64,000 nt of DNA, taken from contig CAJINV010000002.1 of assembly GCA_905178155.1 (NCBI GenBank), forward strand, positions 1,919,216 to 1,983,215. Direction: 5' to 3'. This document shows positions 1 to 57,900 of the stretch, piece after piece; positions within the stretch are counted from its first letter, which is position 1; every line of letters begins with the position of its first letter. Made by a program: the position numbers and the translations under genes. Below the pieces are notes generated by a model, which made no database searches, was not told where the DNA came from, and was given only the letters and a program-made list of their open reading frames with translations. Source of the DNA: Amoebophrya sp. A120 (Eukaryota; Protista; Dinoflagellata).

Positions 1-15
1 TCTTGACAGCGTATT

Positions 16-1019
16 TCATCCAAGTCCAACTCCAACCACAACTCCGAAACACACGAAGAAATACAGAACTATTCCCAGAGGTGGACCCAAGAAAGGACAG
101 CGTGTTTGCATCCCATACTCAATTTTGTCAAACGGTCCGAAGCAGTACACATCTGCACGACCTCCGCTGGCGTTGTCGATCTTATCAAATGCAAATATCG
201 ATCTGGGTCTGGAAGGCGAAGGATGCAAGGTCTGGCGTCCTCATGCATATTTTGCATGACCCATGAGGTCTGGAATGTAGGACATAGCATGACAGATTCT
301 GTGAGAGTTCTATCATGCCTATCCTGCATGAGAAACTGCCTCTGAACTAGGTCAACAAAAGTGGGCAGCTTTTGGTAACTATGCAACACATGTTTTTACA
401 TGATTCAGGTTCAGCATGACAAGTTGCTTTGTTCCAGACCCAAACATATTAATTTGCATTTGATAGATCTCGTCCGGGTACAGTCCGCTCGCCGCACCAT
501 CCTATCCACTGCAAAAAGTATCGCACTCGTAGTAATTGCTGTTATCTTCTTCACGCATGAGATGAAATCTCACACTCTAGCTTTGCCTGATCCACCATGA
601 CAAGAAACTGCATTTATTTTCTACAGTTCGGAAAATTTCAATTTGTAATGCAATTTATATATACTAGTACGTGTACGATACTGTTTTGCAATGCATACGT
701 CCTTCAGGATGTGAACGGCTTCCTCCTTCGCGTTGAACAGCCCAATCATGCCGGAATCACAGGAGAAGAGGTTACCCGCGAGGCCCTCAACCGACTTGGA
801 AAACCCGATGGAAGGACAGGTCGCAGAAACGTCGTTGGCAGATGCAGCTTGGCCATCGGCAGAAAGCTTTTGCTGGTTTTCGCGTTCATGTTCTTCTGCG
901 TTGACCACCATGCTGGCAGCCAGTTGTGCCGTGTCAGCGGAGGCTGCGAGCAGGAGACCGGCAGCAGACGCGGAACGGTACTTGCTACGCATGGGCAACG
1001 TGGGATGGTGGTGCGACAT
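16..1019 (-). CDS. Hypothetical ~171-aa membrane protein (hydrophobic N-terminal stretch, C-terminal TM); 2 introner introns
   Basis: Removing 503-697 and 183-465, each plus one 5-bp TSD, gives 516 nt in frame: ...HILKDGAASGLYPDEIDNASGG...LGIVLYFFVCFGVVVGVGLG*. Start codon choice is uncertain. Confidence 0.65.
183..465. mobile_element. Introner family A (283 bp)
   Basis: TIR tatcaaatgcaaa..tctgggtctggaa; TSD gatct/gatct. Confidence 0.9.
503..697. mobile_element. Introner family B (195 bp)
   Basis: TIR tatccactgcaaaaagtatcg; TSD catcc/cgtcc. Confidence 0.85.
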
Positions 1020-31300: not shown

Positions 31301-33275
31301 AGGTTGTGGGTTGTTGTTCGCCTGATGAGCAACGCCAGGAGTCCCTGCTCCTCGTGGGACTTGTGCATGCTGTTGTATTTGATGCGTTCCGGTTAGTTGC
31401 TGCACGCTCCGCGTTTCTGTAAAGGAGGACGGCGGAAGGGCTAGATCAGGTACGCCACGAGGTAGTTGTATCGGAGCTGCGGCTTTCGCTATAGCAGCTT
31501 CTCTCTGGGACTGGGAAACAACGTTCTGACTATGCTGCTGCACATGGACCACCGCGGCGCCTATCAAATGCAAAAATGTCTGGGTCTGGGAGATTCCGAG
31601 ATTTGTCATGCAGTTTTTTCAAGCTCCCCCACGTCTGGAATGCAGGGCTTCGCATCACAGGTTCTGCAGCTCCTTGGTAATGCGTATTCTGCATGAGAAA
31701 TGCCCAGTCAGCATGGCCAGAAGTCGGCACCTTTTGCACGTTCTGCATCACAGATCTTTGTAGGATCCGAAACACGCATCACAAGTTCCAGACCCAGACA
31801 TTTTTACATTTGATAGCGCCCTGTGTGTGTTTGTGTGAGTTGTGGTAGGCCGCCTGCTCCGGGGACTGGTAGGTAGAAGCACCGCTTGTAGCACCGACAC
31901 TGAGTCTTCTTGTTGCAGAAGATGTAGCGGAAGACGATGTTAATGGGCCTGCACGTTGCTCCTCTGCGCCGCTGCTGTCAACGTGTGATGGGTGCGAGGT
32001 TGTACTAGCGGTTGCAGAGCCACTTGGTGATGTGTTAACACTACTGTCGTTCGGTTCAGACCTACTTGTTTCCATATCATGTTCACCTTGATGTTCCTCC
32101 TCCTCCTCTAGTCTCCTACCGCTACCTGTTTTCCCCGTCCCCGCATAGTCCTGAAACACCCCATCCGGGAGAAACGACACAAAGTTCACGTCCTTGAACC
32201 GCGGACACGCCGGGTCGTTTTGGGAAATAGCTTCGGGTTGACAACGCGTCAACATCACGTAGATATCGGACGGAGGCACGTTCTGCTTGGTCACCAAAGA
32301 TTCGACTTGGTCCGCAATGACGTGAAAGCGGTCGCAGCCGGTGATAATCATGTACGCGAGCTGCTTCCGGGTTGATGTTGATGTTGAGGATTGGGATTGT
32401 TCTGCAGTCTCAGAAGGTTCGCCGCTCGCTATGGGGTTCGCTTCCAAATATTTTCTCCTCACCTCGCTGTCTTCAGGCAGATAAGCTGCGGTGCGAATCA
32501 CCTTGTTCAGTGATTTTCGCGCTTCCTGCTGCGCTTTAGTTGTTCCTGCTGGGGGCTCGTTTTCGGGTGGCTCGGTAATTGGGGGCGCAGACGTTGCTGC
32601 AGCTGTTGCAGCGGTAGTATCAGCAGTGGTTGATGTAGAAGAGGTGGATGCTGTGCTGCTTTTCTTTTTCAGCAAGGAAGTCGCGGTTGTTCCGCCACTC
32701 GTGGTCGCGACTCCCGTAGAAGTCCTGCCCGTAGTACTCACCACTGGCACTTCAACAAGCTTTGTTGTTGGCTGGGCTGCGTCCACCAAAGGATTTGTGA
32801 TGCCACCAGCTCCAGAAGATGACAACTTCGGCCTCGCAGCATGACGCAACTGCTCATCCTGCTCCTTATCCTTTGTAGCTCCATGCAGTTGGCTACCAGC
32901 AGTGCGAGGATTTTGATCCCAAAATAAGGTCGTCCGGCGAAGGCGGAGGTCGGAAGAGGGACTGGATGAACCGGTGCTGCTGCTGCTGCTGCCCCGATTT
33001 ATTTTCTCTGCAGTTCTACCATGCGCGCCGTCCTTGATTAGCTCCTGGTCTCTACTCGTCGACCACGAGGAAGCTGAAGATGTTGAACCGGCCAGGTTGT
33101 TGTATCTGCTCTCCCGTCGCAAGACCAAATCGTGGTCGAAACGGAGCTTTGTAGAGCTGTAATACAACGCCACGGAAACGAGGAACAACCTGGACATGAT
33201 GTTGGCGCTGAGGGCGGGACAGACCAATGGCACTACTGTTGTCGACGTAGGGTTAGCAGCAGCAATAGTGGACAT
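28380..33275 (-). CDS. GT13 family N-acetylglucosaminyltransferase (GnT-I/MGAT1/POMGNT1-like), ~1276 aa; 5 introners
   Basis: VAVLEDDLDVS, SLISVSAWNDNG, RENHFGGLGWMT and PRQAYKG motifs; N-terminal membrane anchor. Spliced length 3831 nt = 1277 codons. Confidence 0.85.
28801..29013. mobile_element. Degenerate introner (213 bp)
   Basis: tatggattggaagttttcgtc vs revcomp end tatgtagtggaaattttcgtc; TSD decayed; element+5 restores ETPRQAYKG. Confidence 0.75.
29238..29401. mobile_element. Introner family J (164 bp)
   Basis: aaatttcccgtacacgtacaa / ttgtacatgtacggaaaatt; TSD ggtag/ggtag; left end tgtc variant. Confidence 0.82.
30487..30660. mobile_element. Introner family B (174 bp)
   Basis: Family B TIR; TSD tatct/tatcc. 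Confidence 0.88.
30697..30931. mobile_element. Introner family I (235 bp), inside the EDD motif
   Basis: ~40-bp TIR tatggagttctcaaatgttacattctcagctgttacatga; TSD ctcca/ctcca. Confidence 0.92.
31562..31815. mobile_element. Introner family A (254 bp)
   Basis: Family A TIR; TSD gcgcc/gcgcc. Confidence 0.92.
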
Positions 33276-35985: not shown

Positions 35986-38575
35986 TCAGTTCAACTTGTC
36001 CTTCGCGTCCGCGACATTTGAGAAAAAAACGTCCACCCAATCCACATCATAATCCGGTTCGTTGGGGAAGTACGGCCGCCCGTCCCAGGTGATCCTCTAT
36101 CAACTGTAAAAGTGTCTGAGTCTGGAAGATGGTAACTTGTCATGGTAAATCTGGAGCATACAAAAATCTGTGTTGCATGAGTGCCAAAAGCTTTCCACTT
36201 TCGACCAAGTTGGGAAGGAGTTTCTCATGCAGGATACGTATGGCAGAGACCTCCACGTCCACCTCGCAGAGCCTGTCATGCTAAGTCCCGCATTCCAGAC
36301 CTCATGGGCCATGGAAAAACTGCATGACAAGCTTACACTCTCCCAGACCCAGACATTTTTGCAATTGATATCCTTCTCCCCAAAACGAAGCATTTGAACG
36401 CGTAGGTGACTAGATTGTCGACTCGCAAATTCTATCAAGTGCAAAAATGTCTGGGTCTGGAAGGATGTAACCTGTGATGCGGATTTCAGAACACACAAAA
36501 ATCTCTCATGCATAGGTAGCAAAAGCTGCTCACTCTCTGTCACCAAAATGGCGGATTTGTCATGCAGGAACGGCATTGCGGAGGCTTCTCGAAACCTGTG
36601 ATGCTAGAGCTTCCATGCCAGACCTTCTGTGTCATGCAGAAACAGCATGACTCTTCCAGACCCAGACATTTTTACATTTGATAAATTCGGGTGCTGTTCC
36701 TTCTCCACCAGCATCTTGCTAATCTGCGGGTACTTCGTCCAGTGGCAACTTGGCCGCAAGTGGTGCGCTGTGTGGAAGCCGTTGTTGCACGTGAAAAAGT
36801 TGATCCACTCCCCGACAAAATCCCGCGCGAAGTTGAAGTCCGGATCCCACAGCTTGTTGCCGTTTTCATCCCGGATTTCTTTTGTCGTTGTGTTGTCGTC
36901 GGAGTTGTCCTTCGTGGAATCGGTGGACGATTCTTTGTCGTTGTTTACTGTATCTACTTCCTTCTCGATTTTACTCGTATCAACCTTTACTGGTGCTGGT
37001 TCCGCGACTAATGCAGCTGCTGTGAGTTCAACCTCCGACATCGGTCGAGCAGCAACAGCAACACCGCTCTGCGGGGGAGAGCAAGAAACTCGGCTCAGCA
37101 AATTAGTTGCGGTTTCCGAGCCCAGTTCTTGTTTCGCTTTTTCCCCCAGCACGTCCTTGTCAAAAATCACCTTCTCCCATTCCTCCTTTTTCTTCTCGAT
37201 ATCAACAGACTTTTCTTCTTCTTTCACCACGGTTTGACTTCCCTTTGCGATGTAGGGATCCGGGGTTTCGCCGAGCTCGCGAAGGACCAAGCAGCCGTCG
37301 TGCTGCAGCATGTTCATGGTGATTAATGCGAGCTTGGCCCAGAGCTGGGGGATGAGAAGGATCCACCACCATTGTTGGAAGTAGTTGTAGGCCAGGTAGA
37401 TCTGATAGATGTTTTTGATTTTGTAATATTGTTTGCATGTGATTCTTGCATGACAGGCAACTTTTCAAATTTTGCTTCTGCATGACAAAGAAAAATCAAA
37501 AAACAACCACATTCTATACCTGCAATGGGTAGTACGCCACCTGTTCGATGCGCATTCGGTAGTAGAGCCAGACGTTCCCCTTGGAGTACGCGATCATGAA
37601 GTATTTGTTGTCCGTAGGAATACAGTGGTAGGAGACCGAAACCCCGAAGAGCAGGCAGTTGATAAGGTTGTACCTTTGATAGAGTTTGTTGTATCATTAG
37701 CATTACAAATTGCATTTTTCCTTTTCCAAAATTTGTCATGCAATTCCTACCAATGCGATACATTTTTGTCATGCGTAAACACTAAAAAATTGTCAATACC
37801 TCCAGCGCATCCTTGTCGTCCGGAAGCTGTCCTTTGGCGTCTGCACGTACTTGTGGTGCGACAAGTTGTGCCCGGGGATTAAAGTCGACACCGGGTGCCC
37901 ATACGTGTGCGTCAAAACGATGTTCCACAGAGTGTTCACGTGGTAGTTCTTGAACTGCGCGAAGTGGATGCAGTTGTGCACGATCGTCGCGCAAAAAAAC
38001 GCGAAGGAGCAGGCCGCAATGATCCAACAGAAATCAAGAACCCCGATTGCTGTTTTGATCCCAAATTCCTGGGAGAAGAACGGTAATTCGTTCGCAACCG
38101 CTGGGTTCAAAACCTCTTGTTGTAAATATTGTGTGATTCTCCACTTCCCGGGGACCAGTTCCTCCGCTGCTTTATACCTCGGATCGAATTTGTACAGCCA
38201 CCATCTCCACGCGACCAGGGAATAATACGTCCCGACCAGCCAGAAGGTCCGCAAGTCCTGGTAATGCTTGAGGTTGCAGGCGGTCGCGATTTGTTGGAGG
38301 AGGGGTTTCGTGTACAACCGGAAGAACTTGCTGGAAGAAGATTCGTTTGTGGTGGAGGGTGAGGATTTCTTCAGCTGACCCGCGCCCGGTCTGGTGTAAG
38401 GAGTGGGCTTTGATGTCGTGGTAGAAGCACTAGACGGTTTTATGCAGTCCGCGGGGGGGATTAGGGCGGCTTGCTGCTTTTTTGCCGAGTTGGAAATGTG
38501 CTTCAATTCGTCATCTGCCTCCTTGTTCCGCTTGCGCATGGGGGACTCGGAGTCCCGCGTGCTGCTGTCGGACAT
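35986..38575 (-). CDS. Membrane fatty-acid desaturase family protein (~603 aa); 2 GT-AG introns (37674-37799, 37402-37519) + 2 introners
   Basis: Histidine boxes HNCIH, HNLSHH, NNGFHTAHH, plus LQHDG. Spliced length 1812 nt = 604 codons. Confidence 0.85.
36098..36370. mobile_element. Introner family A (273 bp)
   Basis: Family A TIR; TSD tcctc/tcctt. Confidence 0.9.
36433..36683. mobile_element. Introner family A (251 bp)
   Basis: Family A TIR; TSD aattc/aattc. Confidence 0.92.
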
Positions 38576-39960: not shown

Positions 39961-42900
39961 TCAAGAAAAATCCACTAGCAGGAAGTTCATCAAATCTCTA
40001 TCCTTCAAAATTTCCGCTTCCTGCTTCTTCTTCTCATACTTTTCCTTCTCCAATTCCCACAACTCCTTTTCCTCTTTCTTATGAATCCCGTGCATGTCGA
40101 TCCCATTCGTCTTCGCCGAATCAATCTCGGAAATCGTCGTCGACAGCGCGAGGATCCGCCTGATCCGCTCCGTCACGTGCGACCGATGGTACGGGGGTAA
40201 GGCGGAAATCACCAATCTCGATTCGTATTTCTCCAAAACGTGTTTCAACAATTATCGTAAGGAAAAATCACACCTCCCCATATCAAAAAGGTACTTCTCA
40301 GAAAATTTGTAATGCTGATTTGTGACCACAAATCTTTGTGTCTTGCAAGAAGGCAACTCTACAGTCTCCGCCACATTATGCAAGCAGTTTGTGATGCTGC
40401 TTGGGCTACAGCATAGACATTTGTGATGCTAATCGTCCACGTCAGACGTTCTGTACTCAGGCAGGGCATACGCCTGCAATGCTCTACTGCAAGACAGCTC
40501 TGATTTGTGTACGGAAATCCAGCATCAGAAACTTCGTTTTGATATGGGGAGGGGGGATTTTTCCGTTTGATAACAGTGACTGAAACCGCCCGTTTTCATT
40601 CAATTTCTTCACGTTTTCGTTGATCAGCGCGACGTACTGCCGCGGTCCGGTGCACAAGTTTCCGAGTATGCAGTGCAAAGGTATCGCACTCGTACTAATT
40701 GCAGCTACGCATGACAACTTTCCTTCTTAAGCTAAATCAGCATTACAAATTCCATTTGTCATGCTGCGCCTATTTGTATTGCAATTCGTACTAGTACGAT
40801 GTTTCTGCATTTCATACCGAGCAAAGCCAGGCAAAATTCTATCGCCGTGAAATTCTCTTCGTAGTAGAATTCCCGCATCAACTCGAATAGCAATTCCAGC
40901 CCCTCCTCCTTCGCGAAATTATGCTTCACCACCCCCTCCGCCGGACTCGGCACCCCGGGTGGTTGATCCGGTTCTTGGGTCAAGGGACTTGGGGAAACCA
41001 AGTGGATCAGGAAGTTGAGAATCACCAGCACGAAGTATCTTGTTTCCAGAAATAACGATGTGGAAGACCTACTATTCGGATTACTGGATGGTTTCGTCAA
41101 CGCGGACACAATCCCGCCAGCGACGTCACTCAACCCCTGCACTGCCTCGCCGATCGCCTGGCCCGCTTTTCCGACCACCGCGGCAACTGCGTGGGCTGCG
41201 GTGTCTTCGTCGGAATAGTTATCGGCGTTGTCATAATTTTCAGCTGCATTATTTTCCACCGCAGCAGCCGATCTTCTATGTTTGTGCTTGTTCGGGATCT
41301 TCCCGTTCCGGTCTTTCAGCGCATTCCGCTGTTTGTCATGGTCCTCCCCCAGCATGTGCCGGTACATGGAGGTCTCGTGGAGGAAATCTTCCCCGTATTT
41401 CCCCTCAAATTTATCCACCGTTGACCCCAACCCGTGGTGGTTGCGGTAGAGCTCCTTCACGACGTTACTTCTCGTTTTCAACCCGCCGATGTGGCCTATG
41501 ACAGTGCACAACTTCAACTCCCCCTTCCGCGCCTCATTTGTCATGCAAAATCGTAAATCCAGGCTGCGCATCTTGGCACTGTTTGCATGACAAGTTCTGG
41601 TAGCCCAAATAGCCCTTTAGTCCAGTGCACACTTGTCATGCACAACCGGCATTCTTGCTGATGCTTGTATTGCTGTTCATGCCATACAAATGAGGGGGAG
41701 GGAGAGTTGTGCACTGTCATATGGCCATGCCCTTGATCGTGTTGACTATGCGTCCCCGTGTGCCCGTCCTTCGCTAATAACGTTGCGACGTGCTTCGCCC
41801 GATGGTCATGCGACTGAATTCCGTCGAGATGTTGCCTCAAGTGGTTCGCGGACATGGAGTGGTGATTATTCTGCCCCTTTTTACTGGTGTGCGCGTTCGC
41901 GAAAGTACTACTCTCATTCCCGGCATCTTTCGTTAAGCCGTACGTGAAAAACCGGTTCTGCGCTAATGCTGTGTGTCTTGTCCTCCGCAAATCGTTCAGC
42001 CTGTGCCGTAACAACGCGACTAAAATCACGTCAAACCCCGCTTCCATGATCTGCTGCCGGCCGAATTTCTCGCGTTTTTGGATCTCGAACAGGACAAGAA
42101 TCGGGTAGAGAATGATCCTGTTCCCCTTGAGTTTCGCGGAAAAATACCGCTTCACGACAAGCAACATCGCGGAGCAGAGTAACCGCGTGTCGTGGGTTCG
42201 GTGTAGAGACCAAGAGGACCGTGGGTTCTCCGCGTCGAACTCGAAGTCTACGTCATCCGTTTGCACCGCGTCGAGCAACTGTAGTTCCTTTTTCGTCCGG
42301 ACCCAAGAATCCTGCTCCACGTCCGCAACTACCGCTTTTCCGTCCGTCTTCCTGGTTAAGTTCAACTGCTGTCCGGAACTGCCTGCTTGCCTACCGCCGC
42401 CACTGTGCCCGACGAAGGACTGAATGACCCTCTCCACGTCAAACTGCCCCTCCTATCAACTGCAAAAATGTCTGGGTCTGGAAGATCCTGAGACCTGTCG
42501 CGCATATTTTGCATGCGCCATGATGCCTGTGATGCATGCCCTAGCATCACAGATTTTTCGAGGGCTTCTGAATGCCTATTCCGCATGAAAAATGCCCTCT
42601 CCGCGTAGCAAGAATTGCACTTCCTTCGCTACTCATGCAATACAGATTTTTTTGGAATCCAAACGCAGCATCACAAGTTACATCCTTCCAGACCCAGACA
42701 TATTTGCAGTTCATACCTCCTCCTCCTCGTCGATTTTGTGGTCGACGTCGTGTCTTCTGTGTCCTAGGTGCCGGAGCTCAAGCTCGCTCGTCATTCCGAA
42801 GAGTTGGTACTGGTTGGGAACTTTGAAATCCTGCGCGTGGAAAACTTTTTTCTCCAACCCGGACTGCTTCCGAAGCTCGATGTAGCGGGCTGGTAATTTT

Positions 42901-45900
42901 TTTTTTGTACTTAATTTGATTGTGATTGATGCAAACAAGCCATGGTGACGACGACAATTTCCATCAAGTTTAGTAGTGGGAGTGCTGAGATAACATGAGA
43001 AAAAAATGCAAGAATCGTGCAAAGATGAAGAAATTGAAAAAACATCAAGTACACATCTTCGGTTCCAGCGCCTTGTCCCCCAGATCGAAAAACTTCTTCG
43101 CCCTCAACTCCTTCTCCGTTGCCTTTTTCCGATACACCTTCCCTCCTAATAGCCCGATATCATCATCTTCTTCGCTCGACCAGAACTCAATGTCGCCCGG
43201 CTTCGGCTCCTCCGGCATGTTGATCGCACGGTGTCTGGCGAGCATATGCATTGCAAAAGCATCGTGCCCGTACTAATTGCGATCACGCATGACAGATCCA
43301 TTTTTCTACCGGATCTAGCATGACAGATCGCATTTTCGTTCTTGAGTAGAGAATTTGTAATGCAAGAATGTACTAGTACGATACTTTTGCAATGCGTATC
43401 GCAAGTCTTTGCACCACTTTTTCTTCTCTTCCAACGACAAAAACTGCTCTTTGTTCATATCTTTCCGGTTTAATGGGTATTCCGTTATGTACAAAAACTC
43501 CCGCCACTGCTTCACAAACCTGGCTCGAAGCGCAATATACCGGGATTCCAACGCCTCTTTCCCCATCTGCATGTTCTCATTCGCCTCCTTCATCAACTCC
43601 GCCTGCGTGTCGAACTCGTGTTGGAGAATTTCCTTCTTCCGCTGTTGGATCTTGTGCGTCAACAATTCCCGCACGACCGGGTCGTAATGCAACGCCGTCG
43701 CGATTTTCTCGTAGTTCGTCTCCTCATAATCGTCGTCCAAATTCGCCAGTTTTCGCACTTTATTCCTCCTATGCCCCGTTTTCGCCTTTTGCAGCATACT
43801 ACCCGCGTCGGTTTTCGCGTTGATTCCATCATGTAAGTGCTTGTGGTCCGGGGTGTCGAACACTTCCCCGACTTGCGAAATCGCGGACTTCACCGCGTCC
43901 ATGTGCGATTTCCCCGGGCGGCCGTTGAGTTGGGAATCATTGGAACCGGATTTCAAATCGAGTAGCATCATCGTCGCGCGGAATAAATGCCCGGGCTCGT
44001 ACTGCGGCCCGCCGAGATAGTCGTGGAGACCGGAGATCTTTTCCACGTAGGGGTGGAGATCAAAATTCCTCGTTAAAATCCGCACACAGGACAGCACGAT
44101 ATCCTCGTGCTCCGCGAACTGCCGGAGGAGATCCAAAACTTGCGGTGTGTCGTTCGCGGTGACGAAGTCGTCAAAGTGTAAATGGAGGAAGCAAAACGTT
44201 TCCGCGATGGTTTTGGAATCTGCGAAACGGGATTTCGCCAGATGGGTTAATCTCGTCAGTGATTTCAAAAACAGAGGGTATTTCGACAGCAGGTTATCGC
44301 CGGAATGGACTGTTTTGTCCACGATTTCCTCGAAGTTGATCTTTTTCTTCTGGTGTTTTTTGTGTTTCTTCGTGGAGATTAACTCGGACACGGGAACTAC
44401 ATTTTCCACGTCCTCCAAAACGTGTTCTCCGATGTCCTGGACCAGATGCCCGAACGCCTCGGATTGCTTCAGGGTGGAATGCATGGCGGATTTCACGGAA
44501 GAAACCGCGTTCGTGACGCCCGCGACGAGGAAATTGGGTGGCTTTTTCTTCTTATGCGGGAGCTGGGGTCGTTGGAGATTAGCCCTGGTTCCTGTACCGG
44601 GACCTGAAGGGCCCGAAGCTGCACCACTTCCAGTTACTTCGTGGTGTCTACTACCTCCATGATGTCCACCGTGATCTCCTTCCTCCTCGCTTCCACTCGG
44701 CGTTTCCGGCGGGTAGAAGTCCTTGTGCGAATCCCCCGAGTGCAAAACCGGCTTCACGATCAACTCCTCAATCGCGTTTGTCAACGGTCCGTAGTCCCCC
44801 GGCTGAAAGAAGTACTTCGGAACTTGGTTGAGCTGGTTCTCTAGAGTATCCCACGAAAAAACTGTTTCACTGTGATGGTTTTGCAAGATCTGCATCACAA
44901 GTTTCTTACACATGACACAGAAAATTTGCCATGCTTCCTTCCAAAGGGAATACACCCTTAAAGAGTCAACGTCAAGGTCTTGCTGGTGTAGCAAGACAAA
45001 TAGTTCTGTGTTCCATTTTATGCATCACAAGTTAAAAAGTTTTTTCTTGCGGTACAGAGACGTTCTGCCGTAATACGCCTCGTCCAAAACCGCTTCTTCG
45101 GGATCTACCCTGCCGTGATGGCGCCCCTCGGTGTCCGAACCAGACTCCGAGTCGAACCCCGGCGCGTTCATTTTTTTCATTTGGTTTCGAACACCGGAGG
45201 GGAGATTCTTCGCCACCGTTTTGGCCGCTTTCGCCGCGGTATCGGTTACGCCTTTCACCACTTTTCCGAGGAGTGTTTTCGCTCGATTCTGCACGTTTCC
45301 GGTTGACTCCCCAGTGATCCCCTCGACTAAAGAGCCGACCGCAGCGCCGACCGTCGCGCCAACACCCGATGATTGGTCCTCCATGTGGACGATGCGGTTG
45401 ATGTGGTCAATGGCGATCACGAGTTTCACCAAAATCTGCAACCCGATAGACTGCAACTTCCGTTCGAAAGGGTACAAATCCAAAATCTGGATCAAACACC
45501 CTAAACAATCCTGGTTCCGCCCATCGAGCGACAAAATCGCGAAAAAAGCTGCCATCGACGGGGTTATTTCCACGCATTCTAGTGCTCTTGTTTGATTTCC
45601 CAAGTGTTTCCAAAATCCAAATGAGCGAACGAATTGGTCCAACAGCAAAGTTGTGTGAAACCGCTCGTCTTCCAAAACAGAGCTAGAAGAAACCCCATTG
45701 ATCACGGTGTCCACCTCAAATAAATGCTTCAAACACAGCAACGCTTGCAGCAAAATCCTCGTGTCTGATTTGTGCAGTTGCAGTGCGTGGACGCAAATCC
45801 CGACTTTCTCCCTCAACCGGTAAAACCGGAATTTATTCCTCTGCTCAAACGATTCCCAGCCGAAGGTGTCGTGAAACGGGTCGTCGGTTTCTTCGAACTG

Positions 45901-48900
45901 CCCCTGCTGTATGCAATACAAATTTACCGTGCATGCACGAAATGCATGACAAATTTTGGTTCAAGCTATGAAAAACAGTGATTTGTAATGCTGAATGAGG
46001 TAGGACAAGTTTTTTGTTATGCGTGGTCATCATCTGTAGTAGTACGTGCGTGTACGGGAAACGTGCTCCTGCTGTGAATATGCTCGAGCCTCGTCCGGTC
46101 CATGTGGTTGACGGATTCCTGCGCGAGAATCACCAAGTGGATCACGTGTTCCACTTCGGTTGTGTTTAAAATTCCTATATGAGAGTGCAAAACTCGCCCT
46201 CCCCCTCATTTGTAGTGCATTTCTAGCAACAGAAACCACCTCAAAACTGCAGTCTCTGCATTACAAATCCGCGCACGGAGCATAGTGCAGTTTGGGTTTC
46301 CAGAACTTGTCATGCAAGCACAGCCAAGAGGCTCAGACAGGATTTGGCATTTTTGCATGACAAATGAGGGGGAGGGGGAGTTGTGCACTCTCATAGCCTA
46401 AACTCCTTTTGTAGTAGTAGAAATCCAGCACGAAGTTCATCACCTCGATCGGTAACTCGTCGAACGGATCCGCTGTCAACGAAAACCCAAGCAGCAGTCT
46501 CGTGTGCAAAAAGTGCAAGTCCTTGTTTTTCAAAGTTTTCCGCCCTGGGCACCGATTGAAGAAGTCCTTCATTTCCTTATCTTCGCTGCTCATGTCCACT
46601 TTGGATTTCGTTTCAAAATTCGTGATGTTCGACTGGAGATATTGCTCGAAGAGTTTCTGGCCAGCGGCGTTTTCATTTTGGTCCGCCGAGTTGTTGTAGC
46701 CGCGGAGCTTTTCTTCATCTTGACTAGTAGCAGTACCAGCGGCATAGGACGAAGCAGTTTGGTCGTCGACCGAGGAACTACCACCTGCTGCACCCTTTCC
46801 CTTGCCTTTCGACTTGTCCATATCCAGAAACGAGAAGTCCACGCAATACGCGTCTAAACACTGCAGCACGTCGAAAAGGATTTTAAACAATAATTTCTGA
46901 ATGTCGAAAATGTTCTGAAATTCCCTAGTTACCAAGTTGTGGATGTTTAGCACCGCTTCCACCATCCACTGTAACACCAGTTGCTCGTCGCAGAAGTTTT
47001 TGAAACAGTCCAAAACCATGGAGAGATAGTGGAACAACACATTCGTGTCGATTGTCGTTTTGGTCCGGATCTTCTTATACTCCCTTTTTTCTTCTTCCGT
47101 CATGTGTTCGTGATCCGGGTGGGGTAAGTGTTTGTGGTTCGAATTCCACAGATCGTGCTCGTGGTAGGTTTATGAATTGCAAAAGACTCGTACTCGTATA
47201 GATGCATGACAAATGCCCTCAACGTGAGAAATGAAATTTGTAATGCGGATTTACCTTGAGAAAAAAATTTGTAATGCATGATTGCAATTACTACGAGTAC
47301 GATGCTTTTGCACAGGATAAGGCTTTGCTTTGGAACTCATCTTCGGAGGAAGAGGAAGAACTCGATTCCTCTTCATCCAATTTCTCTTCCTCAAAACCCT
47401 GTTGATCACCACCGCCTTCCTTCTCCCGGTCCCTCCTCAACTTGTCCATTTTCATCGCGTGTTTGGTTTTGATCGTCCCTAAGTTTGCGAGAATGATCAA
47501 CAGCCTGATGAAATGCGGTAAATTCTCCCTGCACCCGAGACTCCCGTTCATTTGCTGCTGCTGCAATTTCAAAAAAACTTGTCTGGCGTTCTTCGGATGT
47601 TTCCCAGGACTCTTCAAATTCTGGTGCAAGTAGTTCTGCTGCTGCCCGCGGAGTTTCATCATCGCGGCGACTTGGGAATTGCTCATTCTCGCCCGGAGTC
47701 TCGGCGGGATTTGGTTCTTATTGCTTCCTCTTTGCGTCGCTTTGGTCGTTTTCGAACCCGAGGGGGAAGATGCTGCACCGCCACTTCTTCCAGCGTCTTT
47801 CTGCACGGCGGAAACTTCGAAGGATTTCAGAGCGCCACCAACACGATATCAAATGCAAAAATGTCTGGGTCTGGAATCTTGCAACTTGTGATGCTGTCTT
47901 TGGAATTGGAAGGTAAAAAAAAATCTGTATTGCATGACCAGCAAGACGGGGAGTTCAGTTTGTGCTACGGGGAGTGGGCGTTTCTCATGCGGAATACGCA
48001 TCAGAAGGCCCTTTAAAAATCTGCGATGCTAGGCCATGCATTACAGGCATCACGGGTTATGCAAAATATGCATGACAAACCTGGCAATCTTCGTCTTCCA
48101 GACCCAGACATTTTTGCACTTGATACACCGCCAGAAACCCCCATCTCCTCCATCCGGATCTCCTCGTAGATGTCTTCCAAATCCTTCATCGCGATGGAGT
48201 GTAACGCGTCGAAAACCTCCTCCGGCTCTTTCTCCCAAATGGACTTCAAATAACCCCCTCCCCGGCCGAAGTTGATCGCATCCGCTTCTTCGTTCACGAT
48301 GTCGAGCTTTTCTTCTACGATCTTGTCCAGTTTTTTGTTCTTGATCGTCTCTAAATACCTCTCCGTTTCCTCCTTCGCCTGGATGAAAGCGAGATTTTCC
48401 TCCGACCTTGGCCCCACGGTGTAATCCCGGACGTTGACGCGGAGTTTCCGGTCCACTTTCTGTGCGTTTTTCTCGACTAAATTCATCACTTCAGTGATTG
48501 TGCGTTGCTTCCGGAATTTCAAATTGTACGGCATCTTGTATGCATACTTCCCCCAATCGGGCGGGAGCCCCTTGTACCCTTTTCTCACTTCGGAACCGAG
48601 GATAACAAGCCTTTCGGGAAACCCGGGATAGGCACGGAAAAACAACAACTGCTTCGGCCACGTCGTGCGGCTAGTTTGTTTCGCCTTCCGGGCCTTTTTC
48701 TGTTCCTCGGTTTCGTTTTCATCCGAAATCTCGTCATCGTCCGCTCGGACCAAAACGTCTTCGGGGAAAAGCACCTCGATGTGGTCCTCCCAATTCGGCT
48801 CTTCTTCTTGATCCTCATCAGAAGTGTCAACTTCTTCCCCCGCTTTCCGCTGCTTCTCCCGGTCCTTTTTCCGCTTCGCTTTTTCTTTGTCCTTTTCCTT

Positions 48901-51900
48901 CTTGTCCTTTTTCTTCGCATGCCCCTCTGCCGTCCACGTTTTTATCCCTAAAAGCTCGTCGTTCGCCATCAATAGTCTGTCTCCCTGCTCTAGTTGTCGT
49001 TTACTCGCCCAGGACCCGACGTCGACGTGAGTCAAAGTACACTCATCAACCAGGCTGGAAAAAGGCTTGTTCGCGTTCCATCTCCCTGTTCCCCAGTTGA
49101 AACCAAGACTCCCCTCCTCCGGCTCTATGGAGTTCGCCTGCACCTGGAAAAAACACAACTCGTGGGACCGTTTGAGAAACACCATGTCGATACAGGGAAG
49201 GTCCAAATACTTCTTCGACTCATGGAACTTCGTGATGTCATACATCCGCATCAACATCGCCTCGTCTTGGTGCTTGCCCTTCCACGACTTCGTTATCGAC
49301 GATGGCTTCGTATTGCTCGCCTGCAACAAAATATCCCCCGCTTTCAACTTGTTCCGGTGGCCGACAGACCCGAAATCCGGATCATCCACGACCCTGACCA
49401 CCGGGTACTCGGACCAATCGAGATTGAAGCCCCATATCTGCCTTAATTTTTCATACGACTTCAAATCTTTTGATTTGATGATCGCCTTGTCGACGTCTTT
49501 TTGCGAAAATTTGATGAAGCAATCCTGTAACTCCTTGGGGGGAATTCCTGGTTCTGGTTGATTTGTTTTTTTCTGACCCGGGATCAAAGTCTGCGAGTAC
49601 AATTCCGGCGGAAAATCGTGGTTGAACGAGACGACTTTTAAGAGATAAGGGAGGAGAAACGGCTTATTCCTCCCAAACTCCTGTTTCTGCTCTTTTTCCC
49701 TTGCCGCTCTTTCCCTTTTCTTCTCCAACAATTCCAGTCGTTCTTTCCTCTGTTTCTCGATCCGCTCGTGCATTTTGTCCATCTGCTCCAGCTGTGTCTT
49801 CTTTTCCTCTTCCTCCGCTTGTTGCCTTGCGATAATCCGGCCGGCGGGGGATCGTTTGTAGTTTTTCTCCTTCTCCAGCTCCTCTTCCGCGTGTTTCTCG
49901 CGTTCTAATTCTTCCTGTTTGACTTTTTCCTGCTCATCCAGCTGTTTTTTCTCCTCCGCTTCTGCTTCTGCTTGCTTCGCTTCCTCCTCCTGCTTTTTCA
50001 GTTCTTCTATGCGAGGCAAAAGCAACGGGCTCGTAACATGAAAAATCGAAGCCATGCATGACAAATCGATGGCCTGTATGGGAATCAGCATGACAAACTG
50101 CGTATTCTTCTCTAGAAAAAATTTTTAGTGCGATTTTTGATTACTACCACGGTGCTTTTGTAATGGAATATCTTCCATTTCCTTTTTCAATTCCTCTTCC
50201 TCTTCCAAAATTTCCTCCTCATTCGGCACGTGCTTCTCGATCGCCTCGTGCCAAAATTCGATCTTCTTCGTCACCTCCGATGCCAAATGCTCTAATTCCT
50301 GCCCCCGGTGCATCAGTTCCGGGGTGAAGCCGTGCTGGTGGCCTTGTTCCAGCGCTTGTTCGTATTCGTGGTGGAGGTGTTCTAGCTCTTTTTCCAGCTC
50401 TTCTTTCTCATGGAGGAGTTCTTTTTTCTTCCAATGCGGCTTGGAGTGAAATTTGTGGTCAAATTCTAACCGGACAGGGTCGACTTGTGGCTTACCTTTT
50501 TTTCCAACGCCTTTTTTTGGAGCGGCTTTGCCTTTCGGTTTTGCTTTCGCGGCTTTGGCTTTGCCCGGAGGTGCAGTGGCGGATTTCTTACTTGTTCCAG
50601 AGGCTGGTTTTTTCGGTGCGCCGCCGCGGAGTTTTGGCTGATTTATCGGCGTATCCTGTACAAAAGTATCGTACTCGTATTGCAATAATGCATTACAAAT
50701 TTTTTTCTGAAGCTAAATCCGCATCACAAATTTTATTTCTCATGCTGAGGACATTTGTATTGCATTTATACGAGTACGATACTTTTGCAGTTCATACGGC
50801 GGCGGCGCGTAGCCGTTTTTTGAACTTGTTAGCAGAGGTTGTGTTGGGATTGACGCAGTGGAACGTGGAGTGGAAAAAACGACAGATGATCGCTGTGCAC
50901 CTGCACCATCTCCCGCGCGAGCAGAGAGAAGCTTCTTTGCGTGTCTGAGTTCCGCATCAGTGGCTCGACGTCCGGAGGTTGAAGAGGAGGAAGCGGAATT
51001 GCCTGTGATTGGAAACGGCGGTTGCGGAGGAACCACTGTGGCTGCAGCACGCACTGATGAAACTGGCGGACCAGTTAACTTCGGCTTGTTATCGCTTGGA
51101 GCCACGACGAGCGGCGACCTTGTTCTCTGCTTCGTCCTGGAGGAAGAAGTAGGCCTTTCGTAGCTTCTAGTTGTAGCGGGCTGCTCGGTAGTTTCACTAT
51201 TGGAAGAAGAAGACTCTTGCATGCTCCGAAACAGCCAGGCGTCGCGATCTTCAGCGGTTTTTTCATACAACATTTCTGCAACTGCGTCACCACTTGACGG
51301 CTCCGGGTAAAAAAGCATGTTCATGTTCGTCTCATGCTCCAGCATCCGCTGCCGCAACAAAGCCATGCGCAACGGTAGTTGCATCTCATCCTCCTCCTTC
51401 AGCATCTCTTTCCGCAAACTCGCCAGCTCGTCCAACTGCGTCATCGCTTCATTTTGGTTTTTCGCGATTTTTTCGTTCTGTTCCTCCTTTCTCAACCTCG
51501 CCTTCAAAGTTTTCTCATCCTTCACCCCCTGCAACTTCTCCGTCAAATCTTCCGTCGCGAGTTCGTCCATGTGCTTCATCGAAGATAAGTTTTCCGGCTT
51601 TTTCCTCCAAAACTCGTCTGCAGCACGAGCTTTCGGTAAAAATTTGAAATCAGCCTCGTCGTTCGCATTCTGCAGATCTTGCTCTAGTTTTTCGGAATAG
51701 GTTGGTTGTTTCGCAATGTTGTTTCTTTTCCTATGCTCCTCCGTTTCTGGTTTTCTTGTACTTGGGTCCAACCCCAAAGACATCAAAAACTGGTGCGTCT
51801 GGCGTTCCGCAATCGCAGCTTCGACTTCCGTAGGGCGGTCAATTCTCGAGTTGTCCATTTCCTTCCCTCTTCTGTACCACTTCTTCGCGATTGTTGCGAC

Positions 51901-54900
51901 TTCTTTCCTCCGATTGCTATCCTCGTCTTTGTACCGGTTCACGATTTCTAAAATTGTCGATGGTTTTTTCCACTTGTACTTGTGCCTACTAGACTTGATG
52001 TAGTTGTCCCAGGGTTTCGGCACTTTCAGCCGCATGTTGTTCTCTAAAATTTTCAGCCGCAACTTCTCCGGAAACCCAAATCCAAGCGACAAATCGACTT
52101 GCGGAGCACTATCGTTGTTCGTCCCTTGTCTCCGAAACAGCAAGTATTTCGGCCAGTTCAAATTGTAGTCGTGTTTCGCTTCTTCGACGACAGTTTCTTC
52201 CCTATGGTGGTGAGAATGGTGCTTCATTTCGATCAATTTGTGCCGGAATTCAATCCGGCTGGGGTCGAGGATGATATTCTCTCCCTTGTCCCGTGCGAAT
52301 TTGACGTATTGCTGATCATTCACGATGAGCAATTCGTCCCCGACCTGGAACCCGTTGTTCGCACCCCAGTCCGTGCTGTACTTGAGAACCTCGCCAACCG
52401 TGGAAAGAGTCGTGTCGAGGTTTTTCGCATATTCCTCATCTTCGGAAGTGGATGCGGGGAAAGAAGGCGGGTTGAACACCCCGTGGACCACTGTGGATTT
52501 GTTTTCGATTTTGTCATTCTTCGGCGTGAAAGCGGAAAAGTTATCTACATTTTTTGGTTTCGTCGCGGTTGCTGCTAACACAGATTTCACGATGTTCGTC
52601 AAAGTCGTGTTTTTATTCCCGAGTAATTGTTCCAAATTTGTTGTTCTTTCCAACGCAAAATCATTCCCATCGCTCGTTTTCATCCGCATAGAATAAAACT
52701 CCACACTGTCTTGGAGGCAGTAAGGATCGTCGGCCTTCACCTGTAAAAATTCCTGCTCTTTCACGTATTTCAACAAGCAGAAATGAATGTCCCCCGCTTT
52801 CATCCGCGCTAGTTTGTGCAAAATCGCGTGCTCAGGGGAATTCGTCGTTACAGTGATCCCCTTTTGCGCCGCGGTTTTAGCACCTGGCTTCTTGTAGTCC
52901 GGATTCGCTTTCTCGAATTGCCACCACTTCAACATGCTATTCCGTCCGGAAATTACCGTGTCCATGACAGTTAAGAGCAAGTCCCCCGCCCGGATGTTGT
53001 ACTTCGTCGCGGCTATAGAATCCTCCGCCGGGTCTTTCGCGACGCGGACAAAGGGAAAACGTGACCAGTCGAAATATAACCCGCCATTCACTTTGGAAAA
53101 CATCCGGCAGCAGATCTGTGCCTGGTCTTTGTCGTTTTCGATCTTGTTTAAGTGCTGCTGGATCGCCTGGTAGGACGGGCGGAGGGGCATTTTCACCTCG
53201 ATTAGGCAATTGTTGTGAATCTCCGGGTTGTCGGAGAAGGGGAGGTACTGAAGGGTGAAGAACGACGGGGCTTTTTTCACTTCAAATTTACTGGCAGTGC
53301 TGCTTGACGGGGGTGATGGCGCAGCTCCAGCTTTCTTCTCGACTGCGGCAGCGCTAGAAGAAGACGTCAACATCACCACCTGTTCTTTCGACGCCCCTCT
53401 GCTCGACCCCGCTCCAACAACGGTTGAATCCTTCGTTGCCCCGTGGGCGCCCTCGAACTCGAAAACGCTTTTTCGGAGGAAGTTTTGTTCCGCTGATTCT
53501 TCTTCCTCTTTGTCTAGAGAGGACGGGAAGAGTAAATTGCGAACCCGGTTTATAACCCGCTCAGGTATTAAATTCAGCACGAGTTTGAAAAAAAAGCAAC
53601 TGCTTTCCTTTTTCGTCTTTGAAACCGAAAAAAACAACCATCGCCAATTTTGATCAAATTGGAAAGTTGATCCGCGTGCTATGCTGGTCCTCGGAGCTCT
53701 CGGACCTGTGAAAAAACCTAAAATATAACAAAAAAAGCGCACTTTTGGAGATTTTGAAAAGCTAACCACGACGGTGCGGGGTCTCTTTTTCCTTTCGGAC
53801 CTGTGAAAAAACTACTTTTCCGGATCCGGCAGAAACGGGCCGGGTTTTTGGGTCCATTCTTGGACCCTTCCCACGGCGGTATGAGGTCGATTGATTTCAG
53901 ATGTTAACGCCCCCCCTGGAGGGGGGGTGCTTCCTCATCCAGGTTTTCTTGCAGAAAAAGCTTGCTCTTCTCTTGTATAAAGTGTTGCCTTTCCAAAGAT
54001 CGAAACCGCGCCGGCACCTTCGCCATACCACCGGCGGACTTACCGTTTAGGGACACATCAACAAGAGAACTGGAAGACCTTCGGACCAGCTAGCTTAAGA
54101 GCTGGGCTTTGAAGTAGCGACTTTAAATGGCGACGATTTGAGAAATAGCGGCTCGCTTTTTTTCAAAATATCGCTGAATTTGATTCCTGAGCGGGTTATA
54201 CGGTTGGTCAGCGGGAGGTGGGGCTTTTTTATCGAAGGTTCTTTGTCATGCTGTTCTTCCGTCCCAGACGCAAGTTCAACATCAACGTGTACTTCCTCCA
54301 GATCGACTGTGTCGTCTAGAATCTGCTCCACATCGTGCAATTCGTCGTGGTCATCAGAGGAGGAGTCGTCGGAAGCAGAAACTGCATCAGAAGACTCACC
54401 GATTTCTTCCCCGAAAGTTTCGCTTTTCGGAGTAGGATCAGGATCTTCATCTGAAGGACCGCCAAATCGTTGTTCGGCGGCATGGTTGTTATGCGGTGCT
54501 AAAACAAGTTGTGCGTCTTCCACATCCTGTTTATGAACGGACAAAATGCAAAACCGGACACGAAAAAAACCAAGAATAGTTGCGATTTTCAATTTTTGGG
54601 CGGTTCAGAGTTGGGTCGTGAGGCGACGCGGTGCCCATGTTTGGGCGACCAACAGCGCCAAGAACTGGTGGCCGCGAAGCCTTGGCGCGGATGTGGGGTG
54701 GGAGCCTTTTCGGGGCTGCTGCTGGCGGTCCGCTTGCTCTTCGGCCGAGTTTCAACAAACGAAGCGAAGGCGCAAGGGCTTTGACCGGGATGGACAGCAG
54801 ATCCCGCCCGCGAGCTCTGCCAGCCCGCCTAGCGAGGGGGGCCCATAATGAGTTACGCCATTGCGCTTGCAACGGCGAGGCCGGGTTTCTGGTTTCGCCT

Positions 54901-57900
54901 CTGTGTTGCCCAAATATGGGCTCGGTGGTTATCATGGTCTCGGCATGAAAAAAAAAGGGAAAACCCGAACCCAGCGCCAGCAGGGGAGGGCGATCAGCCG
55001 CGCAAACCGGATCGGCGAAGGGGCCTGGGTGCTTCCCGGCGTGCGCCTCCCCCCCCCCCCTTTATTTTCCATCCCCATTCCCAGCCCACCCAACTTTAGC
55101 AAGGTGGCCCTCCAGTCCCCAGCATGTTCGCCATCCTTCTCCATCTTGCCTTCCCCTGCGCACCCAGTCCAATGTTTCGAAGGGTGTGGGAAAGCCTTCA
55201 TCCACACCTGCCATTTTGTATGTTGGGTGGGCGCTTTGCCGCGTGCGAAATTGCAAATCGGCAACAGAAAAAAAACAGGCCAAATGCGGAAAACCCAGGG
55301 GCCGCGATGTTTCTTCGGGCGGTCGCGAAGGGGCCCAACGACAAATATCCAGCGTTGAATGTGCGCAAGGCCGGGCAAAAAACCTGCAAGGCGTCGAGGC
55401 CGATTCAGGGCCGCAAAAGATGGCCGATCCAAGAATCTTGGTTTTTTCGCGGGTTTTTTTCCCCATCTGGCCAATTCTTGGCCAAAAAGCCGCTTTTTGG
55501 CCAAGAATTGGCCAGAAGGGGGAAAAAAAACCTGGAAAAAACCAAGACTCTTGGTAGGGACTTTGCGCGCCGCCTTGCAAATTCGAAGCGAAACGCCGCG
55601 CGCTTGGCCCGGTCGCGACTGCCTGCGGAAGTGTCGCGGCCCCGGCACCTTTCGTGTTTTGGCTGCTTTTCTTGTTGTTGGCTCGCAATTTTGCACGCGG
55701 CGAAACCAGCGCCCATCACCTAAAACCGTAGGCGTTTGAAGGTTTTTCGCAGCTTATGGCCTTGGGGCAGCGACGGTTTTTTCGTGGGTGTTTTGCCCCC
55801 TTCGGCAGCCAAGGGAGGGACCCTTCCCCGCGAATTTCGGTCGGGCAAAAATGCGAACAAATTCGGAAGCAGCCCCCCAAGCACGCTGCAAGCTTTTAAG
55901 CTATTTTTCCGCAGCCAATTTTTCCGACGGGCCGAGCGGCGGCTGGGCCCATGCAAGACCAGAGGCCACAGCCCCGCCTCTCCCTGTCCGCCCCGCCTCC
56001 CAATCCCAGCGCTTTGCATGGGAGGGCCCGCTTCAAATAAAGTTGGCGGAAGGCCTAAGCCTAGGCTCTTTCTAGTATCCCGCTGCCCCCTGTGCGTGAC
56101 TCCTTGTGGCCCAACTTCAGGCCACAAGCCTCGGCGAAGTCCGCTCGGTGGGCGGGGTGGTAGAGCTCGCAGGCGGGGGTTGTTGCCTGTCTCGCGTGAA
56201 GACTTTGCGCCTTCGTTTCGGGTATTGGTGTTGGGCCGAAGAGAGGGCTGATCGCGAACAACAACCCAACAAAAGAATCGCCTGCGCATCCGCGTCAAGC
56301 CTTCCCTGCGGCCAGTTCTTCTCGTTGTTGGCCGTCCGGGCGTTGTCGTTTCGTCTTCGCACACACTGGCCGCGAACGGCCGAAAAGGTGCGGATCACGA
56401 TTATTCTTGGTTTTTTTCGTGTCCGGTTTTGCATTTTGTCCGTTCATAATCCTGTTCCAGGAACTCAAGCGTCTCTTCATCCGTCACCTCCTTCACGTGC
56501 AGTTTCCGTTTGCTAGGTGACAACTCTTCGTCCGCGGTCTCCAGGTAGAACATGAACGCCTGACCAGTGGTGCTGGTCCAGGATTTAGAAAGAGCGTCTT
56601 TTGGTTCTTGGTCTTTCTCCTCTCCCTCGGACTGCGATCCCGCGAGCCAGGAAGTGTCACTTCCGTTCTCTTCTTGCTTGCCGCGTTCCAGCACACCGTC
56701 GATTTCTACGTCCGAAGCGGCGAAAATGGAAGATCTGGCAGCCCCTTCCGACGATGAATCTGACTCTGCTTCAACATCCTCACCTTCCAAATCTTCCGGG
56801 GGCTCCGGATAGTGCAGTGGCGCGCCGGTGGATGCTCCCTTTGAAAAGGTGGAAGCGCCCATCTCCCCCGAAGCAGCTCCGACCATGTTCCACCCATCTG
56901 GCAACTTCCGTCTCAAATTCGGCTCCTTTTCTTGCAAATTCTCAAACTGCCCTCCGGGTTTGAGCCCGCCGGTCATTGACCGAATGAGAACCATCACCGG
57001 TCTCTTCGACTGCAATGCTTTCTTCGCGTCCTCGGCCTTTTTCGCGTAGACAAACTGATCCGCAATGGAGACGAGCATTTCCGCTTGAATACCCTGCGAT
57101 TGTGCCCAGGATCCATCCGCGACAGAATTAATCTTTCCCGTTTCCGGATCTATCTCCATCCCGAGACAAGCGGAAGCGGTTCCATTTTCCTCCTCTTTCG
57201 CGACATCTTTCTCGACGAGTAATTGCACGTATTGGTCCTCCTTCACTTTCCGTAAGAACGCAAACGCCGCGACGGGGGTTTTCCCTCCTTGTGATCGTTC
57301 TTGCACTTTCTTCAAAATCGCCTCCTCGGGCGATTCCCCCGGCCAGCGCGCAACGTTGGTAATTCTTTCTGACATAGAGGCGCAAACCAGCATCCTGTCG
57401 CCGATGACCACGCCATTTTTAAACGCCCGGGTCTTCTCACCGTTATCATCTTGCTCCCTTAATTCGCTGACGGTGACACTTGGGTAATCGGACCAATCGA
57501 GTTTGATGTGGAAAACCTCGTAGAAAATTTGTCTTATCCTGTGCAAAAGCATACTAGTACTCGCAGTCATGCAAGACAGCTTTCTTTTTTCAAGCTAAAT
57601 CAGCATGACAAATTCCGTTTGTCATGCGGAGGTAATATGTATTGCAGTACTACGAGTACGATACTTTTGCAGTTCATATGTCTCGCGTTGTCCTTATTCA
57701 CGCTGGATAATTTCTCCGTATCGATCGACGTTTGCGCCCACCCGGTCACGCCCGCGGCTTTGAGGTCTTTGATCCCGCCGAGAAATTGGTAGAGATACGG
57801 GAATATGGATTGCAAAAGCATCGCACTAGTAGTAATCGCATTACAAATTAGCTCAGCACGGCAAATGGAACTTGTCATGCTGTTTTAGCTTGGGATGAAG

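Follow-up and report, generated by a model that had tools for sequence, protein, structure and literature searches.

Inverted-repeat elements and host genes in the window

The window analysed here, 64,000 nucleotides of contig CAJINV010000002.1 of Amoebophrya sp. A120, carries 56 elements that start with TAT, end with ATA, have inverted ends of 25-35 nt and are flanked by 5-bp direct repeats. We examined how these elements sit in the following minus-strand genes and what the annotated proteins retain of them.

39964..64000, minus strand: host gene of P0007 (5773 aa), 3' part, 5144 codons; 26 elements and one canonical intron; continues past the window end
42890..43052, minus strand: canonical GT-AG intron linking the halves that hold 47847 and 42454
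15987..25912, minus strand: host gene of P0001 (2285 aa, Amoebophrya sp. A120); 14 elements
28380..33275, minus strand: host gene of P0002 (1276 aa, GNT-I domain); 5 elements
13262..14489, minus strand: cytochrome c-like gene (CxxCH, by reading); 2 elements and 3 canonical introns, ~115 codons

Junctions were read off the annotated proteins, whose underlying annotation is transcript-based. Window exons match P0001 and P0002, both from Amoebophrya sp. A120, at 100% identity. In both element orientations the proteins lack exactly the element and 5 nt: P0001 at 14/14 junctions, P0002 at 5/5 and P0007 at 25/26; the sole exception among the 45 junctions (44 of which lose element plus 5 nt) is the element at 50008. 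Retained elements would introduce an in-frame stop at 43 of the 45 junctions and a frameshift at one more. Independently of annotation, the cytochrome c gene is open throughout, with CxxCH intact, only when both of its elements are removed with 5 nt each. One element interrupts the haem-binding motif of this gene.

Open reading frames (ORFs) give the same picture. Excising each element with 5 nt extends minus-strand ORFs from at most ~1000 aa to 4496, 2291 and 1292 aa, and offsets of 0, 1, 3, 4, 6, 7, 9 and 10 leave ORFs of at most ~1000 aa. Offsets of 2 and 8 likewise keep the frame; the annotated proteins decide among the frame-keeping offsets for 5, and for neither 2 nor 8.

Empty sites are found in related sequences. 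P0003, P0006 and P0008 (~96% identical; one 11,065-nt contig) are uninterrupted across six window junctions, run into element ends at three sites unoccupied in the window, and seem to retain the canonical intron (weak match). From its proteins, we take this contig to be genomic DNA from a close relative whose insertions are mostly different. P0003, a 731-aa stretch of the relative of P0007, had no Pfam match. P0007 itself has an A25 orthologue of 6041 aa at low identity.

We considered whether the missing segments are an artefact, either of annotation or of reverse transcriptase skipping over hairpins, in which case host genes would be broken or one orientation kept. The junction evidence is second-hand, and hairpins flanked by repeats are a classic setting for template switching by reverse transcriptase. 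Aligners also slide boundaries within perfect repeats, and A120 family tallies give ~30% AG and ~19% AC ends (21 of 58 A120 dataset rows, PMC12130899). Nonetheless, we find such an artefact scarcely credible: a stretch of 5144 codons carrying 26 elements has open host exons throughout, cytochrome c requires both removals, colinearity across the junctions holds for the empty alleles of the relative and for the A25 orthologue, and the polarity and wobble signals described below come from DNA alone.

The repeats were then compared with known element classes. A perfect 5-bp duplication flanks 35 of 54 window elements (54532 and 28801 set aside). By scanning one related public assembly for the pattern of the terminal inverted repeat (TIR) we collected at least 154 loci, 510 kb when merged, bringing the sequence surveyed in the window and the listed related loci to 0.57 Mb. 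A search blind to the duplication yielded 353 confident calls among the matches listed, 269 with a perfect repeat and 313 when one mismatch is allowed, all of 5 bp; no other repeat length occurred among these listed calls, and perfect 6-bp repeats numbered 0/353. The published end motif of A120 introners is TAT, 7 nt and AAA (PMC7789003). Likewise, our position matrices display an inverted repeat of TAT, 7 looser nucleotides and at least three A; a short direct repeat, here 5 bp, lies at the exon/intron boundary, and the elements fall into repeated families (15) missing from the annotated proteins (44/45 junctions). They also resemble miniature inverted-repeat transposable elements (MITEs) in their TIR, fixed-length target-site duplication (TSD), non-coding content and presence/absence between relatives. 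On these sequence features, the repeats are classed as the known Amoebophrya A120 introner elements, non-autonomous TIR DNA transposons. A120 introners have also been catalogued as TIR DNA families, one of which carries ORFs like those of long-terminal-repeat elements (PMC12130899). In looking for an autonomous partner, we found no Pfam match for five ORFs of the 1917-bp element. An Rfam search of the window returned zero matches.

Several further features of the elements were observed. An octamer, TGT[A/C/G]ATGC (variant TGTATTGC), is shared by 314/323 elements from families that are unrelated; it lies on either strand (530 vs 494) and at mirrored subterminal positions, with a density of ~13/kb in elements, 1/kb in other non-coding DNA and 0.09/kb in exons. 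It is a candidate binding site for a common transposase or host factor; a heuristic search for canonical introns (82 calls, noisy, no clean consensus) gave it no tie to them beyond the ~1/kb density. Families A, A2 and B have unrelated interiors and share the outermost 13-15 nt of the TIR, and many copies carry a further TAT…ATA pair immediately inside the outer one, which hints at a composite or nested origin. The elements 54532-56448 and 61526-62776 contain big internal inverted repeats and GC-rich interiors. At L004:2123-2341 and L045:16703-17030 the 5-bp repeat is shifted 3 nt off one end, and in a frame test of 11 related-assembly calls devoid of a TSD most proved non-coding or mis-called. 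Weak TIR calls at 3792, 11414, 33391, 36946, 48943 and 55219 were discarded; 28801 was re-bounded and retained.

Both orientations within host genes

The sequence-only reading of this DNA had proposed that one family lies in both directions within same-strand genes, with the interior of 42454-42715 being the reverse complement of that of 47847-48125 in a single gene, and that 183 vs 7172 and 22289/50652 vs 13761/58682 are inverted likewise. All of these inversions were borne out. In blastn, 42454-42715 and the reverse-complemented 47847-48125 align at 77.7% over 282 nt. We then compared interiors after cutting 38 nt off both ends, so that TIRs contribute nothing. The 42454 and 47847 interiors scored 178 in reverse and 20 forward, with 27 as the top shuffled score. 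Scores for the other pairs were 193 reverse and 23 forward (183 vs 7172), 91 and 16 (22289 vs 13761), 98 and 16 (50652 vs 13761), 91 and 18 (22289 vs 58682), and 103 and 21 (50652 vs 58682). Elements 22289 and 50652 run in the same direction, as do 13761 and 58682. Self reverse-complement scores of interiors were 12-39, indicating that they are not self-palindromes. The junctions of 42454 and 47847 both lie within P0007, bridged by the canonical GT-AG intron 43052-42890, and for 183 and 7172 the host, by ORF reading, is a minus-strand ORF once the element is excised. The elements are listed below; a and b are the two opposite orientations within one family, and family A2 has an A-type TIR and an interior unlike family A.

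42454..42715, family A, a; perfect 5-bp TSD; putative intron 42716-42450 on the minus strand, GT-AG by TSD chance
47847..48125, family A, b; TSD 3/5; putative intron 48126-47843, GT-GT
183..465, family A, a
6320..6590, family A, a
7172..7433, family A, b
19169..19442, family A, a; last A altered at transcript 3' end
31562..31815, family A, a
36098..36370, family A, b
36433..36683, family A, b
16747..17006, family A2, a
17967..18225, family A2, b
21678..21940, family A2, a; register-informative, k at least 1
59833..60088, family A2, a
60180..60431, family A2, a
13761..13909, family B, a; within cytochrome c gene
19921..20073, family B, b
20636..20788, family B, b
22289..22435, family B, b
22835..22984, family B, a
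40667..40816, family B, b; empty site in relative P0008
47171..47319, family B, a; k at most 3
50652..50796, family B, b
57535..57678, family B, b
57804..57954, family B, a
58682..58827, family B, a
58889..59044, family B, a; register-informative, k 0 or 1
16463..16682, family C, a
19579..19805, family C, b; last A altered at 3' end
41497..41721, family C, b; empty site in relative P0008
46178..46395, family C, a; relative P0006 also has a family C end here
59236..59454, family C, b
60715..60945, family C, a
62950..63172, family C, a
6918..7126, family D, a
21993..22202, family D, a; register-informative, k 0 or 1
22529..22737, family D, b
44847..45054, family D, b; empty site in relative P0003
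5083..5362, family E
5415..5686, family E
17076..17396, family F; register-informative, k 0 or 1
40253..40572, family F; empty site in relative P0008
29238..29401, family G, one orientation
59637..59792, family G, orientation opposite to 29238..29401
13965..14278, element of a 14-member family (related assembly included); splits cytochrome c CxxCH codons
30697..30931, element of a 10-member family (related assembly included)
503..697, element with B-type TIR, unclustered
18838..18989, B-like element
43245..43398, B-like element; register-informative, k 0 or 1; same residue in empty P0003 allele
30487..30660, element with B-type TIR
28801..29013, element; TSD match 2/5; +5 nt still removed in P0002
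45910..46080, element, one end degenerate; empty site in relative P0006
50008..50170, degenerate element; sole longer annotated cut, 46 further residues missing
53551..54200, 650-bp TAT…ATA element; 5-bp TSD
54532..56448, 1917-bp element; perfect TIR, 8-bp direct repeat
61526..62776, 1251-bp element; family B ends, 5-bp TSD
63632..63743, short element; D-type ends

The earlier reading had also held that both orientations restore the frame. This is true, but it carries no information on mechanism: removing an insertion together with one 5-bp duplication always returns the old sequence, and a restored frame is thus a trivial outcome of the duplication.

Next, orientation was tabulated against the host gene. 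Host strand was assigned for 323 of 401 elements by a codon table derived from the window, with within-locus agreement of 272/280; the corresponding check on window genes (45/45) is circular. For the 15 families of at least three members (338 copies in the window and the listed loci) the summed chi-square was 8.67 on 15 df (p=0.89). Counts of the two orientations were 46/55 in A, 30/23 in A2, 24/27 in B, 9/16 in D, 13/7 in E and 11/9 in C, the remainder being similar, and the 95% interval of the family A fraction is 0.36-0.56. The strong bias that the sequence-only reading had named as the result that would speak against it is not seen. What bears on mechanism is that no orientation and no target sequence is selected for.

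Inferred polar cut register and predicted terminal stem

We defined k as the count of upstream repeat bases removed; imperfect duplications show which copy stays. Junctions 21993, 17076, 58889 and 43245 allow k of 0-1 only, junctions 21678 and 54532 require k of at least 1, and three further junctions allow at most 3. Together, k=1 is compatible with all 44 junctions and is the sole register that is. The relative's empty allele at 43245 carries the residue expected for k of at most 1. At k=1 the cut lies 1 nt upstream of the first TAT and 4 nt downstream of the last ATA, and the intron would read N-TAT(G/C)…(G/C)ATA-NNNN along the transcript in both element orientations.

Polarity is also visible in the element ends. 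Among 323 exonic elements (271 related and 52 from the window; 13761, 13965, 28801 and 54532 excluded) the terminal T never varies at the transcript 5' end (323/323), whereas at the 3' end it is kept in 313/323 (Fisher p=0.0018). The third TIR base is altered in 7 at the 5' end vs 2 at the 3' end (joint p=0.0007 with the terminal T). These deviations are present in both element orientations, and TIR positions 2-20 are otherwise the same at the two transcript ends. Because the biases at positions 1 and 3 are opposite, strand-biased mutation is ruled out as the source of the polarity.

Under the k=1 register the invariant T would be intron +2, giving U at +2 in 323/323 elements. Four canonical window donors checked by translation are all GTAY, and element positions +2 to +4 match their TAY; of changes at +4, 5/7 are to C. 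A is found at -7 in 321/323 elements. With GT-AG ends at k=1 in 13/323 and GY-AG possible in any register in 28/323, the elements would not be classed with canonical U2 introns, whose termini are GT/GC-AG; terminal dinucleotide pairs at k=1 number 61. Motifs of the NT-NN and TT-NN kind call for caution, since BLAT-type aligners slide boundaries toward such dinucleotides. For this reason, and given the AG/AC excess in the rows of PMC12130899, we discount Table S4 of PMC7789003, where all A120 motifs are NT-NN and those of A25 TT-NN, in agreement with U+2, and do not take it as support. Insertion phase at k=1 is uneven (128 in phase 0, 67 in phase 1, 85 in phase 2, n=280, p=3e-5), which could reflect target preference or selection.

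These constraints bear on removal at the DNA level, by a transposase-like excision comparable to that of ciliate internal eliminated sequences, or by polymerase template switching between direct repeats. Symmetric TIRs, the 5-bp duplication and unbiased orientation are all as such a route would have them, and precise excision would take the element and one duplication. However, the constraints track the transcript strand, which disfavours a DNA-level or transposase-like route. The element 54532-56448 has an 8-bp repeat, and the annotated protein loses the element and 5 nt, with one additional Glu remaining; the element at 28801, with a repeat of 2/5, is still removed with +5, and a repeat-guided deletion would differ in both. 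On these two annotated junctions, the cut seems to be measured from the TIR instead of being placed by the direct repeat. The elements moreover persist in two genome assemblies. We thus judge the DNA-level route very improbable.

We next examined RNA folding. The focal introns 42454 and 47847 are predicted to fold with their TIRs paired (z of -8.7 and -10.0), and in folds of every second element the predicted TIR stem closes in 157/160 sense and 160/160 antisense sequences. In 260 copies of the eight largest families, TIR changes read on the sense strand comprise 183 that keep a G·U pair vs 119 that break pairing (sign-flip p=0.0008). The bias persists at intact paired columns (148 vs 94, p=0.002) and is not seen in the interior control (519 vs 497, p=0.51). 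On these predicted folds the elements have a terminal RNA stem, as in euglenid nonconventional introns.

The excision signal had been described as symmetric and excision as orientation-independent. Both orientations are indeed tolerated without bias, TIR positions 2-20 are alike at both ends, and the predicted stem shows a sense-strand wobble bias; but where the cut falls and which terminal base is invariant depend on the transcript and not on the element, and the transposase-like mechanism drawn from the symmetry is not supported.

Possible routes of removal and related systems

We think it probable that a relaxed U2-type spliceosome, guided by the TIR stem, removes the elements from pre-mRNA. 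The earlier-transcribed TIR would supply U+2, A+3 and Y+4 of a 5' splice site freed from G+1, and the second TIR would pair with the first, placing the 3' site by distance, 4 nt beyond the stem, instead of at an AG. The requirements for G+1 and AG would have been dropped together and U+2 kept. Taking out one duplication's length would return the pre-insertion mRNA, and the stem would substitute for U1 small nuclear RNA (snRNA). The branch A may lie at -7, the first A of the last ATA, which is a guess. Spliceosome proteins and U2, U4, U5 and U6 are reported in A120, and U1 snRNA was not detected in the searches described in PMC7789003. More than 60% of introns in Amoebophrya are non-GT-AG, and the available text of the 2021 account and of a 2024 review leaves their removal unexplained.

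Several results weigh against spliceosomal removal as set out here. The lower bound of k at 1 stands on two junctions, 21678 and 54532, and a codon-likelihood test in the related assembly singled out neither TSD copy as exonic, with 0 stop-codon cases. GY-AG ends are possible in any register for only 28/323 elements, and GT-AG ends at k=1 occur in 13, a scarcity that places the elements far from any characterised spliceosome substrate. The fit to a branch point is poor (YTNAY in 119/323), and the A at -7 is lost in two elements. Pairing with U2 requires a long stem to be melted. Simple counting of TIR pairs gives no excess of G·U over A·C (316 vs 289, p=0.29), meaning that selection on the stem is weak. 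Finally, the junctions come from transcript-based annotation.

Some of these points would suit a different RNA-level route, in which an endonuclease guided by the TIR stem would cut 1 nt ahead of it and 4 nt past it and the exons would be sealed by a ligase; a route of this kind has been proposed, though not proven, for euglenid nonconventional introns. A stem under sense-strand selection, unconstrained GT/AG positions (61 dinucleotide pairs at k=1), a weak branch consensus and the undetected U1 snRNA (PMC7789003) are all in line with it, a staggered cut would likewise be polar, and in euglenids the TIRs are offset from the junctions and the products are circles, not lariats (PMC11282704). Against it, the invariant base falls at the spliceosomal U+2, with +2 to +4 equal to the TAY of canonical donors, and the same register yields an ordinary GT-AG intron where the duplication ends in AGG by chance, as at 42454. 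In addition, the same repeat layout is reported in 15% of A120 canonical introns (PMC7789003), and the tRNA endonuclease gene of the window resembles an ordinary Sen34. We consider the nuclease-ligase route unlikely, although the main competitor to the relaxed spliceosome.

In broader terms, it is reasonably likely that Amoebophrya A120 has a splicing machine independent of G+1, AG and U1 snRNA that accepts any RNA hairpin with UAU…AUA at its base, reads a single U and measures its cuts at -1/+4 by a ruler, be it a rewired spliceosome or a nuclease-ligase system. If so, the register equals the 5-bp duplication, and an exonic insertion in any orientation or at any site would be a perfect intron at birth, which would account for tens of thousands of gains. 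Transposon and splicing system would be so matched that exonic insertion is nearly cost-free. A two-way element with a one-way -1/+4 cut, an invariant U+2 and a selected stem amounts to a testable excision rule. The rule predicts a lariat branch site, a base whose change kills splicing and an mRNA remnant of the 8-bp duplication, and it would make it possible to re-annotate the A120 intron boundaries that are ambiguous, of which there are tens of thousands.

Earlier publications already describe the elements with their non-canonical ends, put forward the hairpin idea and report two-way introners elsewhere. Library searches and passages of PMC7789003, PMC12130899, PMC9860276, PMC11282704, PMC11453091 and bioRxiv 2025.08.15.670264 contained no report for Amoebophrya of orientation being unbiased, of one common register, of a U that is invariant at +2 or of selection for wobble pairs. 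The A120 introners of PMC7789003 share with our elements TAT inverted repeats with an A run, a length of ~150-330 bp, a hairpin and non-canonical ends. In that paper the repeats range from 3 to 5 nt and splice sites show no clear signature, whereas we find a uniform 5 bp and one polar register; its main text and supplement, as far as available, mention orientation for genes only, whereas element orientation here is unbiased.

Introners of Polarella glacialis and Aureococcus anophagefferens (bioRxiv 10.1101/2020.10.14.339549) are likewise introns with TIR and TSD, found in both orientations, and class 12 of that study has a 5-bp NNAGG duplication and the -1/+4 geometry seen here. They need GY/GA and AG from the element or a selected target, with one orientation favoured; in Amoebophrya, by contrast, the target is unconstrained (GY-AG possible in 28/323) and orientation shows no bias. 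These two-way introners are reported to be spliced by the ordinary spliceosome, so symmetry carries no weight against a spliceosome.

Euglenid nonconventional introns (PMC11282704) share a TIR stem offset from the junctions, TSD-like repeats, non-GT-AG ends and a likely MITE origin. Their pairing is +4..6/-8..-6 with a Y/R junction; here it is +2..4/-7..-5 with no junction consensus. Circular products have been shown for the euglenid introns, whereas the Amoebophrya elements are known here from DNA and annotated proteins. MITE-derived introns of Fritillaria borealis also have TIR and TSD and are described as handled by an adapted U2 spliceosome; they prefer AG-AC/AG-AT and their host retains U1 and U2AF variants, in contrast to our elements, which show no dinucleotide preference. 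Among transposons, IS3EU/GingerRoot elements share TA..TA termini but usually have a 6-bp duplication, unlike the 5 bp here, and Ginger2 has a 4-5-bp duplication, as here (PMC10045372). By this analogy, integrase-type DDE enzymes are probably the likeliest mobilisers.

Other features of the window were recorded. A gene for a tRNA splicing endonuclease subunit lies at 9673-10683 on the minus strand (human Sen34 as best match; PF01974, E=1e-10); as a clue to excision it was set aside, since it looks like an ordinary gene and coincidence is probable. GC-rich (~60-63%) intergenic blocks at ~11100-12150 and 26000-28200, whose scanned ORFs gave no Pfam match, are possibly repeats or promoter-like regions. 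A cyclophilin-like gene lies at 8357-9041 (minus strand), with what looks by eye like a single canonical intron; 37796-38605 on the same strand holds a fragment of a fatty acid desaturase.

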